Positions 52,972-57,898 are shown, counted from the whole stretch's first letter. The stretch is 63,455 nt of DNA, filler included, from 5 parts of 5 records of this genome joined end to end with filler, not necessarily neighbours in it; one strand, 5' to 3'. Numbers and translations: made by a program. Notes: generated by a model from the sequence alone, not told the origin.

Positions 52972-53865
52972 CTACACCTCCCCATAATACCCATACCCGT
53001 TCGCGTGGCACCATTCGATCAACTTCGGGAGGGCCGCTTCTTCTGCCTTGAGGAAGCCGCCGACCTTTTCGGCGAGGGCATGATGGCCCTGCAGGGTCAG
53101 CGTGGTGATTGCCTGGCGCAGCAGCGGATGGAAATTGCGGAACCAGCCCATTGCCGCGAGCTGGAGGAGGAGTTCCGTCAGCTCCTGATCACTGCCCTCA
53201 TCGTCCGGATCCACCGCCAGGACCACTTCGCGCGCCATGGCCAGCCGTTTCTGGAACGTGGCCGAGACGACCCAGGGCAGATGGTCTGGCGGCGTGTCCC
53301 CCTCCTCCCAACAGGCGCAAACCTGTAGCGCGGCGCGGTAGAGCGCGGCATTCATCTGCGCCTGTCGCATCTGCTGGGTGGCGGCCTCGGTTGCGGCGCG
53401 GACCGGGGCGGCAAAGCTCTGCAAACTGGTCAGGCGGCGGGCCGCGCGCATGTCCTGCTCCGCCTCCGGAATATATCCCGCCTCCAGCAGCGCGCCGACC
53501 CGGGCGCGGGCCAGCGTGATTTCCTCATCGGTCTGGCTGCGCGGCGTGAACGGCTCATCGCTCTCTTCCTCGTCTTCCTCGTCACGCAAGATGGTGCGCC
53601 GCGCGGCCAGTTCCGCCTGCTGCCGAATATGGTCGGCCTCGTCCTGTGCCTTGGCGGCGGCGGCCTGACGGGCGGCAATGTCCTTGTGGCGAAAGCCATC
53701 TTCGCGCGCCCATTTGGTCAGCGTTGACCAGGGCAGGTCCAGACGGCGGGCGATTTCCCGCATCGGCTCGCCTGCCTCTGCGGCCTCGCGGGCCAGATGG
53801 CGCAGGGCGGTCAGGCTCGCCGTTGTGCGGCGTTGGCGTTTGGCGGGGCTGGGCGCATCACTCAT
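52972..53865 (-). CDS. Hypothetical protein with an N-terminal helix-turn-helix
   Basis: AGEPMREIARRLDLPWSTLTKWAREDGF is an HTH of the kind seen in terminase small subunits and transposases. It is followed by a coiled-coil, an acidic stretch and a helical C-terminus. Confidence 0.7.
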   Translation of the reverse strand: MSDAPSPAKRQRRTTASLTALRHLAREAAEAGEPMREIARRLDLPWSTLTKWAREDGFRHKDIAARQAAAAKAQDEADHIRQQAELAARRTILRDEEDEEESDEPFTPRSQTDEEITLARARVGALLEAGYIPEAEQDMRAARRLTSLQSFAAPVRAATEAATQQMRQAQMNAALYRAALQVCACWEEGDTPPDHLPWVVSATFQKRLAMAREVVLAVDPDDEGSDQELTELLLQLAAMGWFRNFHPLLRQAITTLTLQGHHALAEKVGGFLKAEEAALPKLIEWCHANGYGYYGEV

Positions 53866-54019
53866 GCCGGGCAGAGTGTCACGGGCGCGGCCCCATCGGA
53901 TTGCGCCGGCGGCAAGGCCCGGCGCGGCGGGCGATCCCGCCCCCAGAGGCAGGGGATAGTGGCGCGCCCCTCCCCCATTGCCCGGCACTGGCCCGGACTT
54001 ACGGACCAGGTCGGTACCA

Positions 54020-54050
54020 TTTATGGACAGTTTATGGGCTCTTTATGGGC
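54020..54050. promoter_or_regulatory. Three direct repeats with 11-bp period
   Basis: TTTATGGAC (54020), TTTATGGGC (54031), TTTATGGGC (54042). Confidence 0.55.
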
Positions 54051-54076
54051 CAGATTCGGGGCCCGAACGGCGCGCC

Positions 54077-55438
54077 TTATCCCCCGGTTACCGCGCCCGC
54101 TATCAGATACAGGATCACCGCAATTCCGCCCGTCACCAGCGCATAGGGCATCTGGGTGCGGACATGGTCGATATGGTCACAGCCCGCCGCCAGAGAGGCG
54201 ATGATCGTCGTGTCGGAAATCGGCGAGCAATGGTCGCCAAACACGCCGCCACCCAGCACCGCCGCCAGCACCAGCGAGGGCGGCAGGCCCAGCGCCGCCG
54301 CCAGCGGCATGGCGATGGGGATCATGATGCCATATGTGCCCCAGCTCGTGCCGGTCATGAAGGCGGTGACGCCCGCCACGACGAACAGAACCGCCGGCAC
54401 GATGATGGGCGAGACAAATTGCGCCGCGACGCCTGAAAGGAACGCCCCCGTGCCGAGCACGCGCAGGCTGTCGCCCAGCGCAATCGACAGGAACAGGATC
54501 GTCACCACGGGCACCATTTCGGCAATGCCGGCAAAGCCCCGTTCCTGTAGTCCGCCCTTGGGAAAGGCCTTGCCCAGCGCCAGCAGGATTGCCGCGACCA
54601 GCATGGCCAGGCAGATCGCCCACAGGATCGACTGGCTGCCGCTGCCGGCCAATATGTTGCCGCCGCCCGTCCAGGCCATGAAACCCAGCGCGCCGAGGAT
54701 CATCACGGCCAGCGGCAGCCACATGTAGATCGCGCGGGTCGGGGCGATGGGTTCCTCGTCTTCGGCCAGCACGCTGCGGCCCTGCCCGGCGGTCTTCATC
54801 GGGCCGAAGACGCGGCCTGTGAAGACGGTGAAATAGACGCCCCCCAGCGTCAGCAGGGCATAGAAATTCCACGGGATCGTGCCCGCCACGACACCGATCG
54901 GGCTCTCGAAGCCGAACGGCTCGACCAGGCCCAGCGCATAGGCGCCCCAGCCATTCAGCAGGATCAGTGTGCTCACCGGCGCCGACGTGGAGTCGATGAT
55001 ATAGGCCAGCCGCTCCCGGCTCAGCCCATGCGCGTCGAACAGGCGCTGGCCCAATACCCCACTGCTGAGCAAGCTGACATTGGTCTCCACAAATATAACC
55101 GTCCCCGCCAAAGCCGGCGCGAGGGCCGCGCGGCGCGGGGTCGAGGCGAGGCCGCGCTTCATCAGGCCACTGACCAGCGCCTCGACGCCGCCGGAATCGC
55201 GCATCCATGCGATCAGCGCGCCGATCAGCAGGCAAAACAGCAGGACGCGCGTATTGCCCGTGCTCTCGAACACGCCGACCGCACGGTCGATCGCGCCCAG
55301 TGCGCCCATGCCGGGATGGAAGCTGGCGATCAGCGTCTCCGAAGCCAGCAAGGCGAGCCCCAGCGCAGCATAGACATTGCGCGTCACCAGCGCGACGAGG
55401 ATCGCCAATACCGGCGGCAGTACAGTCAGGATTTCCAG
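54077..55438 (-). CDS. Na+/H+ antiporter NhaC family protein (probable CTG start)
   Basis: SRERLAYIIDSTSAP, TGTSWGT, GGVFGDHCSPISDTTI, HIDHVRTQMPYA. AAGGAGG lies 7 nt before an in-frame CTG at 55438. Confidence 0.9.
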   Translation of the reverse strand: MEILTVLPPVLAILVALVTRNVYAALGLALLASETLIASFHPGMGALGAIDRAVGVFESTGNTRVLLFCLLIGALIAWMRDSGGVEALVSGLMKRGLASTPRRAALAPALAGTVIFVETNVSLLSSGVLGQRLFDAHGLSRERLAYIIDSTSAPVSTLILLNGWGAYALGLVEPFGFESPIGVVAGTIPWNFYALLTLGGVYFTVFTGRVFGPMKTAGQGRSVLAEDEEPIAPTRAIYMWLPLAVMILGALGFMAWTGGGNILAGSGSQSILWAICLAMLVAAILLALGKAFPKGGLQERGFAGIAEMVPVVTILFLSIALGDSLRVLGTGAFLSGVAAQFVSPIIVPAVLFVVAGVTAFMTGTSWGTYGIMIPIAMPLAAALGLPPSLVLAAVLGGGVFGDHCSPISDTTIIASLAAGCDHIDHVRTQMPYALVTGGIAVILYLIAGAVTGG

Positions 55439-55549
55439 GGCCCAGCCTCCTTGTGTGCAAGCCCCTCACCTAAGCGCATTCGCCGCCCGATGCCCAGCGC
55501 CCTGCGTGCATCGAGAGGTGCAAGCCGGGATGTGACGCAGAAATGCGCG

Positions 55550-55625
55550 GATTCAGGCCGCCATCACAAAACTGTGAAATTCTCCTCAGAAGGGACTCGA
55601 CTCATGCCCGTTTTTGGGGAATCAT
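55550..55625 (+). promoter_or_regulatory. Putative promoter of the structured RNA, with clustered GANTC sites
   Basis: GANTC at 55550, 55594, 55599 and 55619, dyad TCACA-AAAC-TGTGA (55564-55577), and TCGACT-N17-AATCAT as a possible -35/-10. Confidence 0.45.
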
Positions 55626-56147
55626 TTCGGTAAGCCAACGACATCCAGGCGGGAGCAGACCCGCTTCAGGAACGGTGGCAAGTACGTCGCCCTCGCAGGA
55701 AGGGCCAGGCCAGAAGCAAGGTTGTGAGAGCAGCGGCGCAAAGGGTTTGGAAGGACCGCGAGACAAAGCAGGCGATGTCTTCGACAGGGGAGCTAGACCC
55801 CGGAGCGAAGGGCTGTGAGGCGTGACCGGAGCGCGATCCGAAACACGTGACCAAAGGAAAATCCCTTGGGATTACCGGCGGTTAGGTCAGGACAGCACGT
55901 AATTCGCCCGTGCGATTACATGTCTGAAACTGATCCGGGAGACGGCCTTGGGCGCATGCCCGCTCGCAAGAATGTGGCGGCGACCAGACCGGATCCTGAC
56001 AAAGGGCAAAAGAAAAGGCCCGCTTCCGCGAGCCTGATCTGGAACCCGGTGTCCATCGAGGACCGACAACGAGTGCATGCACAGTGTCTCGGTAGTCTGA
56101 TTCGAAACACCAGAGAAGGTGTGATCGTCCGCGATCACACCTTTTTT
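55625..56147 (+). ncRNA. Large structured non-coding RNA candidate (~500 nt), possibly ROOL-like
   Basis: No credible ORF. More than 12 hairpins plus nested long-range helices (55710-23/56031-42, 55886-90/55996-56000, 55932-38/55989-95), 5'/3' end pairing, purine-rich single-stranded linkers and an intrinsic terminator. Confidence 0.75.
56116..56147 (+). terminator. Rho-independent terminator ending the RNA candidate
   Basis: AAGGTGTGATCG-TCCG-CGATCACACCTT followed by TTTT. There is no plus-strand CDS upstream that it could terminate. Confidence 0.88.
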
Positions 56148-56281
56148 GCGCCCGGTGAAATTCAATTTTCGCGCCTCAGGCGAACTCGCGCACAGTCATG
56201 CCCGCAACCTCCCCTGCCCTTCACGCGTAACTTCAGCGAACCCACCCAGAAACCCCGCTATACCCGAAAGGCCCCTTCACC

Positions 56282-57256
56282 ATGCTCGCCCTGATCGAAC
56301 CCGTCTTCGGCCTGATCGGCGCATGGGGTCTGTTCGCCGCCATCGCGCCGAAGTTGCGCACGGAAATCTGGTGGATGCGTGTCTGGGTCTATGGTCGTCT
56401 TCAAACCTGCCTTGTTCTTCTCGCTGCAGCTGCCCTCTACAACTCACTCTACCCTGCCGCCGAACTCGGCAATGCCAGCCTGCTGATGGCCTATGCCGTC
56501 GCCTTCCTCATCTGCGCCGCAGACATTCAGCCTTACCTACCGGGCCGCAAACGCGAACTGCGCCGCGCGAAAGCAGGTGCCAACGGTACGCCGCTCTCAA
56601 TTCTGCTGATAAATGTGCTGCAGGAGAATGAGGACCACACCGCCGTCATTTCCCGCATTCGCGACAGCCATGCCGATGTCCTCTTCCTGTCAGAAACCAA
56701 TGCGCGCTGGCGCGATGCATTGTCCGACCTCGAAAAGGACTATCCCCACACCTACCTTTTGGACAAGGAAGATCATAACGGCCTTCTGTTCTATTCACGC
56801 TACCCGATCAATCAGGCCCAGGAACGCTATTTCTGTCAGGATCACGTGCCGTCACTCACGATGGACATCGACATGGCTGGTAGTGAGGTGCGTCTTTATT
56901 GCATCCACCCACGCCCGCCACGCCCCCGCGACGACACACAGCATCTTGATGACGAGTTGATGATCGTCGCCGATGAATTGCGCGAGCAGGAGCGTCCTGC
57001 TCTGGTGATCGGCGATTTCAACGAAGTCGGCTGGTCCTGGATGGTGCGGGAGTTCAAGCAACATGCCGGCCTTTGCGATCCCAAGCGTGGACGTGGTCTC
57101 TACAATTCCTATGGCGCGAAAAACCCTTTCCTGGCTTGGCCGCTGGACCACGCCTTTGTGACACGGGATTTCGACCTCGTGACCATCCGGCGCCTTCGCC
57201 CATGCGGATCAGATCACTATCCAATGCTTTATGGTTTTCAACTGCGGTCGGTTTGA
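56282..57256 (+). CDS. Endonuclease/exonuclease/phosphatase (EEP, YafD-like) family membrane-anchored protein
   Basis: N-terminal TM helices, INVLQEN, LSE, IHPRPP, IGDFNE, PLDH, GSDHYP. Confidence 0.88.
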   Translation: MLALIEPVFGLIGAWGLFAAIAPKLRTEIWWMRVWVYGRLQTCLVLLAAAALYNSLYPAAELGNASLLMAYAVAFLICAADIQPYLPGRKRELRRAKAGANGTPLSILLINVLQENEDHTAVISRIRDSHADVLFLSETNARWRDALSDLEKDYPHTYLLDKEDHNGLLFYSRYPINQAQERYFCQDHVPSLTMDIDMAGSEVRLYCIHPRPPRPRDDTQHLDDELMIVADELREQERPALVIGDFNEVGWSWMVREFKQHAGLCDPKRGRGLYNSYGAKNPFLAWPLDHAFVTRDFDLVTIRRLRPCGSDHYPMLYGFQLRSV

Positions 57257-57307: not shown

Positions 57308-57538
57308 ATGGTGATGCGGCCAGTTACACTCACTATCAGCTTGATGGTCTTGGCGACCATCCTCGTCGGGTGCGAGACCTCGGAGACCGCCCAACGCGCG
57401 CCCGCCTCAGTTGAAGTCGTCACGCCCGGCCCCGGTCCATCAGAGCGGCAGGAGATGCCCACAGCGGCCCCTTACCGTCCGGAGCAAAAACCTCCTCGCC
57501 CCACCGCACCGCCACCTCCGCCACCTCCGCCACCTCCG
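57308..57538 (+). CDS. Putative lipoprotein with poly-proline linker (3'-truncated)
   Basis: Lipobox-like ILVGC, and a CCGCCACCT 9-mer repeat encoding poly-Pro at the contig end. Confidence 0.6.
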
Positions 57539-57638
57539 NNNNNNNNNNNNNNNNNNNNNNNNNNNNNNNNNNNNNNNNNNNNTTAATTAATTAANNNNNN
57601 NNNNNNNNNNNNNNNNNNNNNNNNNNNNNNNNNNNNNN
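57539..57638. other. Artificial contig-joining linker
   Basis: N44-TTAATTAATTAA-N44. Confidence 0.98.
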
Positions 57639-57898
57639 GGCCCCATGGTGAGATTGACCTTGGCATTCATGTCCGGTCCAAGTCCCTTCGGTCCAAATTT
57701 ATTGTCTCGATGCAGCCATTTTATGCGCCACGGATAAGAGTGCCGCCGCAAAACGGGCATGACTGAAAGTGGCAATATCATACCCGCACGTGAACGGATC
57801 TCCGTTTCTTGCGTGGCTTGTCCTTCATGCCGATTCAACGATTGAGCGCAGCTCCGCCTCTCTCTAGGGTGAGCGGCAAAATCAAGGGAGAAAACACC

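Follow-up and report, generated by a model that had tools for sequence, protein, structure and literature searches.

A structured RNA gene between the NhaC-family and EEP genes

The DNA analysed here, referred to below as the window, is a stretch of 63,455 nucleotides (nt) in which five parts of five records of one genome are joined by filler. In this window a Na+/H+ antiporter gene of the NhaC family (54077-55408, - strand; named after its homologue in locus L016, a frame that matches PF03553) and an endonuclease/exonuclease/phosphatase (EEP) gene (56282-57256, + strand, PF03372) diverge from a gap for which a preliminary description, made by a model from the sequence alone, had proposed the absence of any credible open reading frame (ORF) and the presence of an ornate non-coding RNA (ncRNA) of ~500 nt. 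Our analysis leaves very little doubt that ~55630-56147 on the + strand is a stand-alone gene for a structured ncRNA of ~520 nt that is expressed. Its approximate ends had been placed correctly, as can be seen from the probable 5' end and the terminator in Table 1, where the features of the locus are collected.

With regard to coding capacity, none of the three ORFs within the gap had a match in Pfam, the longest + strand ORF shrinks to 33 amino acids (aa) across 43 homologues, and the variability of the core in the homologue alignment showed no 3-base periodicity (0.245/0.207/0.212). A coding reading was rejected on these grounds, in keeping with the preliminary description. The + strand of 55600-56150 was predicted to fold with -221.2 kcal/mol (z = -3.33), a value as good as which was found in 0/100 dinucleotide shuffles, versus z = -2.05 for the - strand; it thus folds better than shuffled controls, as the earlier description implied. 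Because G-U pairs are frequent and a U-tract is present, the RNA was assigned to the + strand, which had also been favoured at the outset, and on this strand the 5' half of the RNA stretch is purine-rich. The strong terminator that had been noted 3' of the RNA contains an 11-bp stack with 7 compensatory pairs, and between 56114/56145 and 56123/56136 its stem is 98-100% paired. With a length of more than 400 nt, no coding function, covarying helices, and a promoter box and terminator, the RNA falls within the operational class of large structured ncRNAs.

Table 1. Features of the RNA gene and its promoter region (positions in the window)
Feature	Position	Strand	Details
Promoter box TCGACTC, putatively -35-like	55597-55603	+	GANTC inside
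AATCAT, putative -10-like hexamer	55620-55625	+	16 nt past the box end (17 nt past TCGACT); assigned from spacing
Probable RNA 5' end	55629-55632	+	
P2 long hairpin	55634-55679	+	55634-40/55673-79; 55645-46/55669-70; 55649-53/55660-64; loop AGCAGA
P3 multi-helix domain	55684-55778	+	55684-91/55771-78; 55692-95/55759-62; 55709-11/55744-46; 55716-17/55738-39; 55721-25/55730-34 (GAGA tetraloop)
P4 hairpin	55779-55810	+	55779-83/55806-10; 55787-90/55798-801; loop AGCUAGA 55791-55797
P5 pseudoknot domain	55812-55849	+	P5a 55819-24/55844-49; P5b 55827-29/55838-40; loop 55830-32 with 55812-14
Variable central domain	55850-56000	+	Hairpin 55856-75; long hairpin 55891-924; closing stems 55886-91/55995-56000 and 55932-38/55989-95
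3' domain of type 1 copies	56001-56111	+	Hairpin 56017-34; stem 56047-50/56068-71; hairpin 56089-92/56097-100 (alignment A3, pair table)
Palindromic hairpin GUGCAUGCAC	56073-82	+	Within the type 1 3' domain
Invariant GAUUCGAAAC	56098-56107	+	Within the type 1 3' domain
Intrinsic terminator	56112-56147	+	Stem 56113-28/56131-46, then U run

Conservation and covariation of the core

The EEP protein was found at 12 loci in named genomes, with a 100% protein match in Hyphomonas sp. L-53-1-40, to which the window essentially corresponds. When the gap was compared with the EEP loci by blastn, we observed a conserved block that is sharply bounded at 55565-56147 and is ~80% identical in species in which the EEP protein is only 67-69% identical. 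In a blastn search across 201 genomes of the Hyphomonas family (the family of genome G004), 56 carried the same block. We collected 51 copies, 43 of which were below 95% identity, with a median pairwise identity of 61%. The copies come in two forms. In type 1 the extracted copies measured 552-765 nt, including ~65 nt of promoter; type 2 copies (~390 nt, estimated by eye) keep the promoter box and the core and have no 3' domain.

The core structure, which comprises 44 pairs in 12 helices, was evaluated on two alignments. In the first (A1; MAFFT, core, 43 sequences) 91.8% of the cells were paired, versus 81.1% after column shuffling and 35-39% when the partners were slid, and compensatory changes occurred at 28/44 pairs, versus 18.0 in shuffles (0/500 reached 28) and 9-15 with slid partners. 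The number of compensatory cells was 205, versus 66 and 21-43, respectively. The second alignment (A2; model-based, 67 copies, 24 of them outside the structure derivation) gave 92.9% paired cells, compensatory change at 38/44 pairs, 535 compensatory cells and a covariation score of 0.505 versus 0.191 in shuffles; A2 was fitted to the model and thus favours its own structure, which counts against taking these values at face value. Covariation among homologues, as implied by the preliminary description, is therefore seen in both alignments. In a blind scan for covarying column pairs, the top six scores were all Watson-Crick, and the stacks with compensatory changes comprised the terminator and several local helices. 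The pseudoknot of P5 lies outside the model and therefore serves as an independent test: the pair 55814-55830 is C-G in 46/67 copies, U-A in 20/67 and unpaired in 1/67, and its competitor 55830-55837 is disrupted in 16 of the 24 newly added copies. These results support a core made of the local domains P2-P5 and the pseudoknot.

Within this core, several hairpins of the preliminary description were recovered. Among the 43 homologues the apical stem of P2 (hairpin 55649-64 of that description) was 90% paired with 26 compensatory cells, hairpin 55821-47 was 99% paired with 20 compensatory cells, and the G-C stem of hairpin 55787-801 was likewise supported. The basal stem of P2 is recast as GGUCGC/GCGACC-type pairs in L051, L060 and L061, as seen by eye in the alignment. 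Across the 67 sequences, helices 1-6 of the P3 domain were 79-98% paired with compensatory change at 20/23 pairs, and in P4 all 8 of the 8 pairs of helices 7 and 9 were compensatory.

The multi-domain drawing proposed earlier held for its ends, for several hairpins and for the closure of the central domain, and failed for most long-range helices. The central domain differs in length between lineages and is mostly missing from the type 2 copies; support for its stems from RNAalifold was confined to 8 close relatives. This limited support applies to the proposed hairpins 55860-73 and 55891-924, to the helices GTCAG/CTGAC (55886/55996) and GATCCGG/CCGGATC (55932/55989), and to the ACC/GGT part of TGACC 55848/GGTTA 55880. 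The pairing of GCC 55634 with GGT 56091 gave way to the local basal helix of P2, and that of GCAGC 55730 with GCTGT 55812 competes with the covarying GAGA-capped hairpin of P3. On the 43 homologues, GACAT/GTGTC (55640/56084) was 63% paired, the helix between 55710-23 and 56031-42 was 32-49% paired, and the hairpins 55689-705, 55744-57, 55761-80 and 56004-21 were unsupported. The end-closing helix TTTCG/CGAAA was 89% paired and showed no compensatory change, with central mismatches in two lineages (uncompensated U-U in 6/40 and A-A in 5/40 copies). For these reasons, and because the 5' half of the helix would fall within the promoter and before the mapped start of the RNA, it was not adopted. 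The 3' domain shows little covariation because it is largely conserved in sequence. A T-loop reading of its invariant GAUUCGAAAC was considered by eye only.

Distribution, transcription and genomic context

To describe the distribution of the RNA we used a core covariance model (R1; 174 positions, 41 pairs). In the family sample R1 matched 58/151 genomes; for 57 of these E was <= 1.1e-12, and each matched genome had a single strong copy. In the order sample 25/151 genomes were matched; all 24 strong matches were genomes of the family sample, and one further match was weak (E = 9.6e-4). In the class sample of 151 genomes only the query genome was matched, and none of the 150 other Alphaproteobacteria. 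Blastn gave no match to the RNA in phage and plasmid collections, and two conserved core motifs had 0 matches in viral contigs. The RNA is an accessory, single-copy gene, found only in the Hyphomonas family.

Bacterial ncRNAs of more than ~400 nt with an ornate conserved structure are very rare; a handful of classes is known, and their biology is mostly unsolved. We compared the RNA with known families. Rfam 15 gave 0 matches over the whole window at gathering scores; for 55400-56300 at E <= 10 the sole match was ctRNA_p42d, on the other strand and at chance level (E = 0.21). No Rfam match fell on the RNA in 20 homologous loci at gathering scores, or in seven divergent homologous loci at E <= 1, and the models of ROOL, GOLLD, OLE and raiA remained below the cut on the window stretch (E = 10), on the seven loci (E = 1) and on the 20 loci (gathering). 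ARAGORN found no tRNA or transfer-messenger RNA (tmRNA) in the window, and no known ribozyme model matched. Readings of the RNA as tmRNA or 6S RNA were rejected, as alpha_tmRNA and 6S sit elsewhere in 3/3 carrier genomes (G004, G177 and G154), and so was a reading as RNase P RNA, since L038 and L044 have a gene of its own for that RNA beside the new one. Two-piece tmRNA, 6S RNA and RNase P RNA resemble the new RNA in being stand-alone, structured, terminator-ended and seen in RNA libraries; they differ in that their genes sit elsewhere in the carriers, and the new RNA was not found in most genomes of the family. A literature search that included look-ups within PMC11109978 and PMC8632094 yielded no description of the RNA, supplements with possible candidate lists being outside its scope. 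It is likely that no known RNA family matches. The preliminary description had left the choice between a ROOL member and a new class; the missing Rfam match and the covariation favour the second, and the ROOL models below the cut speak against the first. The data support a new RNA class, seen in no family but that of Hyphomonas, which joins the few large ornate RNAs known from bacteria, and within the reach of the literature search, supplements excluded, it is a candidate for the first of its kind in Alphaproteobacteria.

Evidence for transcription came from sequencing runs. Words were sampled from the 1101-nt stretch 55300-56400, about half of which is the RNA gene; 12 runs recorded as RNA contained 0.45-0.60 of them, two further runs, guessed to be RNA, contained 0.45-0.51, and four runs of unstated kind contained all of them (1.00). 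We compared contigs from four RNA runs (X1, X3, X4 and X6), each from a different study. The RNA was covered by 55628-56202 in X1, by 55644-55784 and 55785-56121 in X3, and by 55643-56005 and 55976-56067 in X6; the starts at 55644 and 55643 were of high depth, and the contigs on the flanks were all of low depth, so that coverage in the four libraries is essentially limited to the RNA. Mean word depth was higher for RNA contigs than for flank contigs, which is suggestive only, with one figure per contig. Twenty adapter-like letters come before the X1 contig; we take them for a template-switching adapter, which would place the 5' end as given in Table 1. Thus, there is good evidence that the RNA gene is transcribed and moderate evidence for this 5' end. 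Several points weigh against reading more into these data: the 5' end comes from a single contig, the X4 contig (55495-56108) starts upstream of it, and assembled contigs cannot prove ends, strand or level. Two sequence differences in the contigs probably reflect strain differences, namely an extra T after 55784, on the 5' side of P4, in contigs of 3/4 runs, and an A instead of G at 55891 in X1.

The exact box TCGACTC lies 74-85 nt 5' of the core in 64/67 loci, and a scan with the sigma-70 consensus reported no promoter at the 5' region of the RNA. Three GANTC sites (starts including 55594 and 55619) are found within 55594-55623, versus 1.09 per kb window-wide; over the whole window 69 were seen versus 226 expected from composition, and most homologous promoters have 2-5 GANTC sites within 90 nt. 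In cell-cycle control of the Caulobacter type, GANTC is the site that CcrM methylates, and from this link and the GANTC-rich promoter one can therefore reasonably infer that the promoter may be timed to the cell cycle. A second conserved upstream motif, CACAAAACTGTGAAAT (55565-55585), ~25 nt before TCGACTC, could be a regulator site, and CTGTG(A) recurs at its position in several lineages. A CRP-like upstream site (CTGTGAAA) and a sponge role through CsrA-like GGA motifs were considered by eye only.

The neighbours of the RNA were examined in 50 loci. NhaC is the commonest, adjoining the RNA in 20/50 and always on the opposite strand; it lies upstream in the window group, and downstream and convergent elsewhere. 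EEP lies downstream of the RNA in 9/50 loci and UvrB upstream in 8/50, and a clade of 7 loci has another common neighbourhood, the scanned members of which (L038 and L044) have the RNase P RNA gene next to the RNA. Of the 20 loci scanned for RNA genes, these two have RNase P RNA directly downstream (L038:2198-2591 and L044:2584-2959; same strand, 64-148 nt) and one (L060) has a tRNA there. No protein gene is linked to the RNA across lineages in the 50 loci, and no downstream gene on the same strand is conserved as would be expected of a riboswitch or leader. These results bear on the idea that the RNA is a cis-regulatory leader or riboswitch acting on the EEP gene through the terminator. The EEP gene is on the same strand, 135 nt past the terminator, and the X1 contig reads through to 56202, as such an idea would have it. 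However, at other loci convergent NhaC, RNase P RNA, tRNA or other genes take the place of EEP, the contig word depth is higher on the RNA than on the flanks (again, suggestive only), and H. atlantica has EEP without the RNA: the segment matching 53119-56263, with the NhaC gene and the RNA, is missing upstream of its EEP gene (compared with L005:2537-2982). Because the flanking genes differ between lineages, we conclude that the RNA is not the leader of any gene, and regulation of EEP in cis is extremely improbable.

Besides the NhaC gene and the RNA, the extra ~3.1 kb relative to H. atlantica takes in most of a 338-aa ORF (52972-53988). This ORF has weak, sub-threshold Pfam matches to transposase helix-turn-helix domains. 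The position of NhaC downstream of EEP in other species shows that the locus is prone to rearrangement. Could the RNA then be a guide or structural RNA of a mobile element, or else a very divergent member of ROOL, GOLLD, OLE or raiA? Its size is ROOL-like, a tRNA or RNase P RNA adjoins it in some loci, the ORF with the transposase-like matches is 1.6 kb upstream, and the locus is rearranged between species. Against this stand the absence of an Rfam match at the permissive cuts given above for the window and seven relatives, the single copy per genome, the lack of matches in phage and plasmid collections and viral contigs, and the fact that the 50 loci show no conserved neighbour coding for a transposase, reverse transcriptase or nuclease. 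We therefore consider this explanation highly improbable. A catalytic role, with the pseudoknotted P3-P5 core as the centre of a ribozyme, would agree with the compactness and strong conservation of the core, its pseudoknot and near-invariant joining strands, and with the RNase P RNA gene next to it in one clade. Yet known ribozyme models did not match, the context that could supply a substrate is not conserved, and the contigs span the whole RNA without joints, nothing indicating a particular chemistry; a ribozyme is thus quite improbable.

At two loci with type 2 copies (L076 and L081) a small ORF, XRE-type helix-turn-helix-like by eye, converges on the RNA from the opposite strand, ~30-250 nt beyond the type 2 terminator.

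Palindromic loops and possible modes of action

The P4 loop of the window (AGCUAGA) contains the self-complementary words AGCU and CUAG. A palindrome of at least 4 nt was present at this loop in 64/67 copies and in 19/22 distinct loops, versus 6.58 +/- 2.09 in shuffled loops (0/3000 reached 19), a comparison that overstates independence, the loop variants being phylogenetically related. When loops were defined by RNAfold, 18/25 were palindromic. The words differ by lineage (CUAG/AGCU, CUCGAG, CCGG/UCCGGA, UCGA, UUCGAA and UGAUCA/AUGAUCAU), which amounts to at least six different palindromic cores at one loop position. In control loops, palindromes were seen in 0/67 copies for P3e and 2/43 for P2, and in the terminator loop they were below the shuffles. 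In addition, CTAG is nine-fold rarer in the window than expected (24 seen versus 226), yet it is kept in the P4 loop. The 3' hairpin of Table 1 forms a second such element: 35/40 type 1 copies have a perfect 10-nt palindrome there, 29 as GUGCUAGCAC and 6 as GUGCAUGCAC, and its central bases changed from UA to AU, turning CUAG into CAUG, in the window group and likewise in L046. A UCGA-type palindromic loop at 56051-63 was inconsistent across groups and was dropped.

An intramolecular kissing contact of the P4 loop with the 3' hairpin was rejected, as the 3' loop of the window group reads CAUG and P4 is still CUAG. Neighbouring bases in a single loop are unable to pair intramolecularly, and the simplest explanation is therefore that the loop pairs with its counterpart in another copy of the RNA. 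Passages of PMC12286853 on OLE and GOLLD describe comparable, cryo-electron microscopy-backed cases: loop L9.3 of OLE, switching between GGCC, GAUC and AGCU, is a symmetric kissing loop in a dimer, and for L21a of GOLLD, also a symmetric kissing loop, the same palindrome-switching argument was made. By analogy, and judging from sequence, whether our RNA self-associates through its palindromic loops is in our view evenly balanced.

Besides the relatedness of the loop variants, a number of observations weigh against this interpretation. Three of the 22 distinct P4 loops (UGCCAGG, UGUCAGG and ACACGCAAA) are free of palindromes, the 3' palindrome is absent in 5/40 copies, and type 2 copies do not have that hairpin. 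The P5b loop is palindrome-rich as well (48/67), and here the words are conserved rather than switching; it was dropped as a sign of self-association, and its palindromes, being due to conservation, mean that composition can mimic part of the signal. The association is predicted here from sequence. Finally, R1 had no match in 93/151 genomes of the family and the RNA was not found in H. atlantica, H. oceanitis or one metagenome-assembled genome; it is therefore dispensable in those species.

Taking these points together, we slightly favour the view that the locus is an independent gene for an abundant, trans-acting RNA of ~520 nt that represents a new class and binds its own copies. Transcription would start from a promoter with the near-invariant TCGACTC box, rich in GANTC sites, and would end at the intrinsic terminator. 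The conserved core, with P2, the multi-helix P3, the P4 hairpin and the P5 pseudoknot, would be the functional centre; the central domain would be a variable, lineage-specific elaboration, and the 3' domain is confined to the longer type 1 copies. The P4 loops of two molecules might pair with each other by symmetric kissing, giving at least a dimer, and in type 1 the second, 3' palindromic loop might add a further kissing contact, possibly leading to rings or larger assemblies as in OLE, ROOL and GOLLD.

An alternative is that the RNA is monomeric and binds protein, either as a ribonucleoprotein scaffold or as a regulator decoy in the style of 6S RNA or CsrB, and that the palindromes are sites for dimeric proteins or incidental. 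This would fit the RNA-library contigs in four studies and the conserved core beside a variable periphery. Moreover, in the alignments the hairpins P2, P4 and P5b share a GG-AGC...A-CC form that could be a repeated protein site, and proteins take part in the action of OLE, the closest analogue. Switching among six self-complementary words is, however, not what one would expect of a fixed protein site, and no protein gene accompanies the RNA across lineages, the commonest neighbour (NhaC) being on the opposite strand. We regard a purely protein-binding RNA as a possible but unlikely explanation.

A more far-reaching version of the self-association model is that Alphaproteobacteria have in this RNA their first large RNA of the OLE/ROOL/GOLLD type: a ring or cage made only of RNA, held together by the P4 and 3' palindromic loops, expressed from a promoter with CcrM sites and made at a set point of the Hyphomonas budding cycle. 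This picture is speculative and, on balance, unlikely to be right in all its parts. Three of the known classes of large ornate RNA have recently been shown to form RNA-only assemblies. The dimerisation initiation site of human immunodeficiency virus 1 is one of the other palindromic kissing loops: it has a loop with a self-complementary word of 4-6 nt and purine flanks, and its palindromes differ between isolates. That site is a viral genome-dimerisation signal, in contrast to the P4 loop, which is inside a bacterial ncRNA. OLE (ornate, large, extremophilic; Firmicutes) shares with the new RNA a length of several hundred nt, many conserved helices and a stand-alone, abundant transcript, and, as far as the treatment of L9.3 in PMC12286853 goes, a hairpin loop in which a tetranucleotide switches between palindromes, as in P4. 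It differs in that there is no sequence or model similarity, that it belongs to another phylum, and that the RNA described here has no linked partner genes and a dimer that is only predicted. ROOL and GOLLD, which form RNA-only nanocages, resemble it as large, ornately structured RNAs whose internal linker is variable or disordered, with conserved loops as intermolecular bridges and with occasional tRNA neighbours, according to the parts of PMC12286853 on these features; the corresponding tRNA frequency here is 1/20 loci. Unlike them, the present RNA is chromosomal, single-copy and confined to one family, without an Rfam match or an occurrence in phage, plasmid or viral collections. ROOL and GOLLD are often located in phages or prophages and beside tRNA genes; for the present RNA no such location was seen, given no phage or plasmid match, no tRNA in the window and the one downstream tRNA among the 20 scanned loci.

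The RNA offers practical advantages for studying this category of molecules. Its hosts are cultivable, genetically tractable, stalked budding bacteria, the core is compact and proven by covariation, and natural short (~390 nt) and long (~520-700 nt) forms are available. It also comes with a specific prediction, namely that the palindromic loops mediate self-association, and it makes the function of large ornate RNAs directly testable in a new phylum. In addition, the RNA, which is currently invisible to Rfam-based pipelines, can enter annotation catalogues.

Two minor features lie further from the gene. A cobalamin riboswitch in locus L051 (L051:5285-5477), ~1.8 kb downstream of the RNA, appears unrelated to it, and in the window the G+C content falls to 0.32-0.50 at 57400-57700, directly past the EEP gene, versus 0.55-0.75 in the rest.

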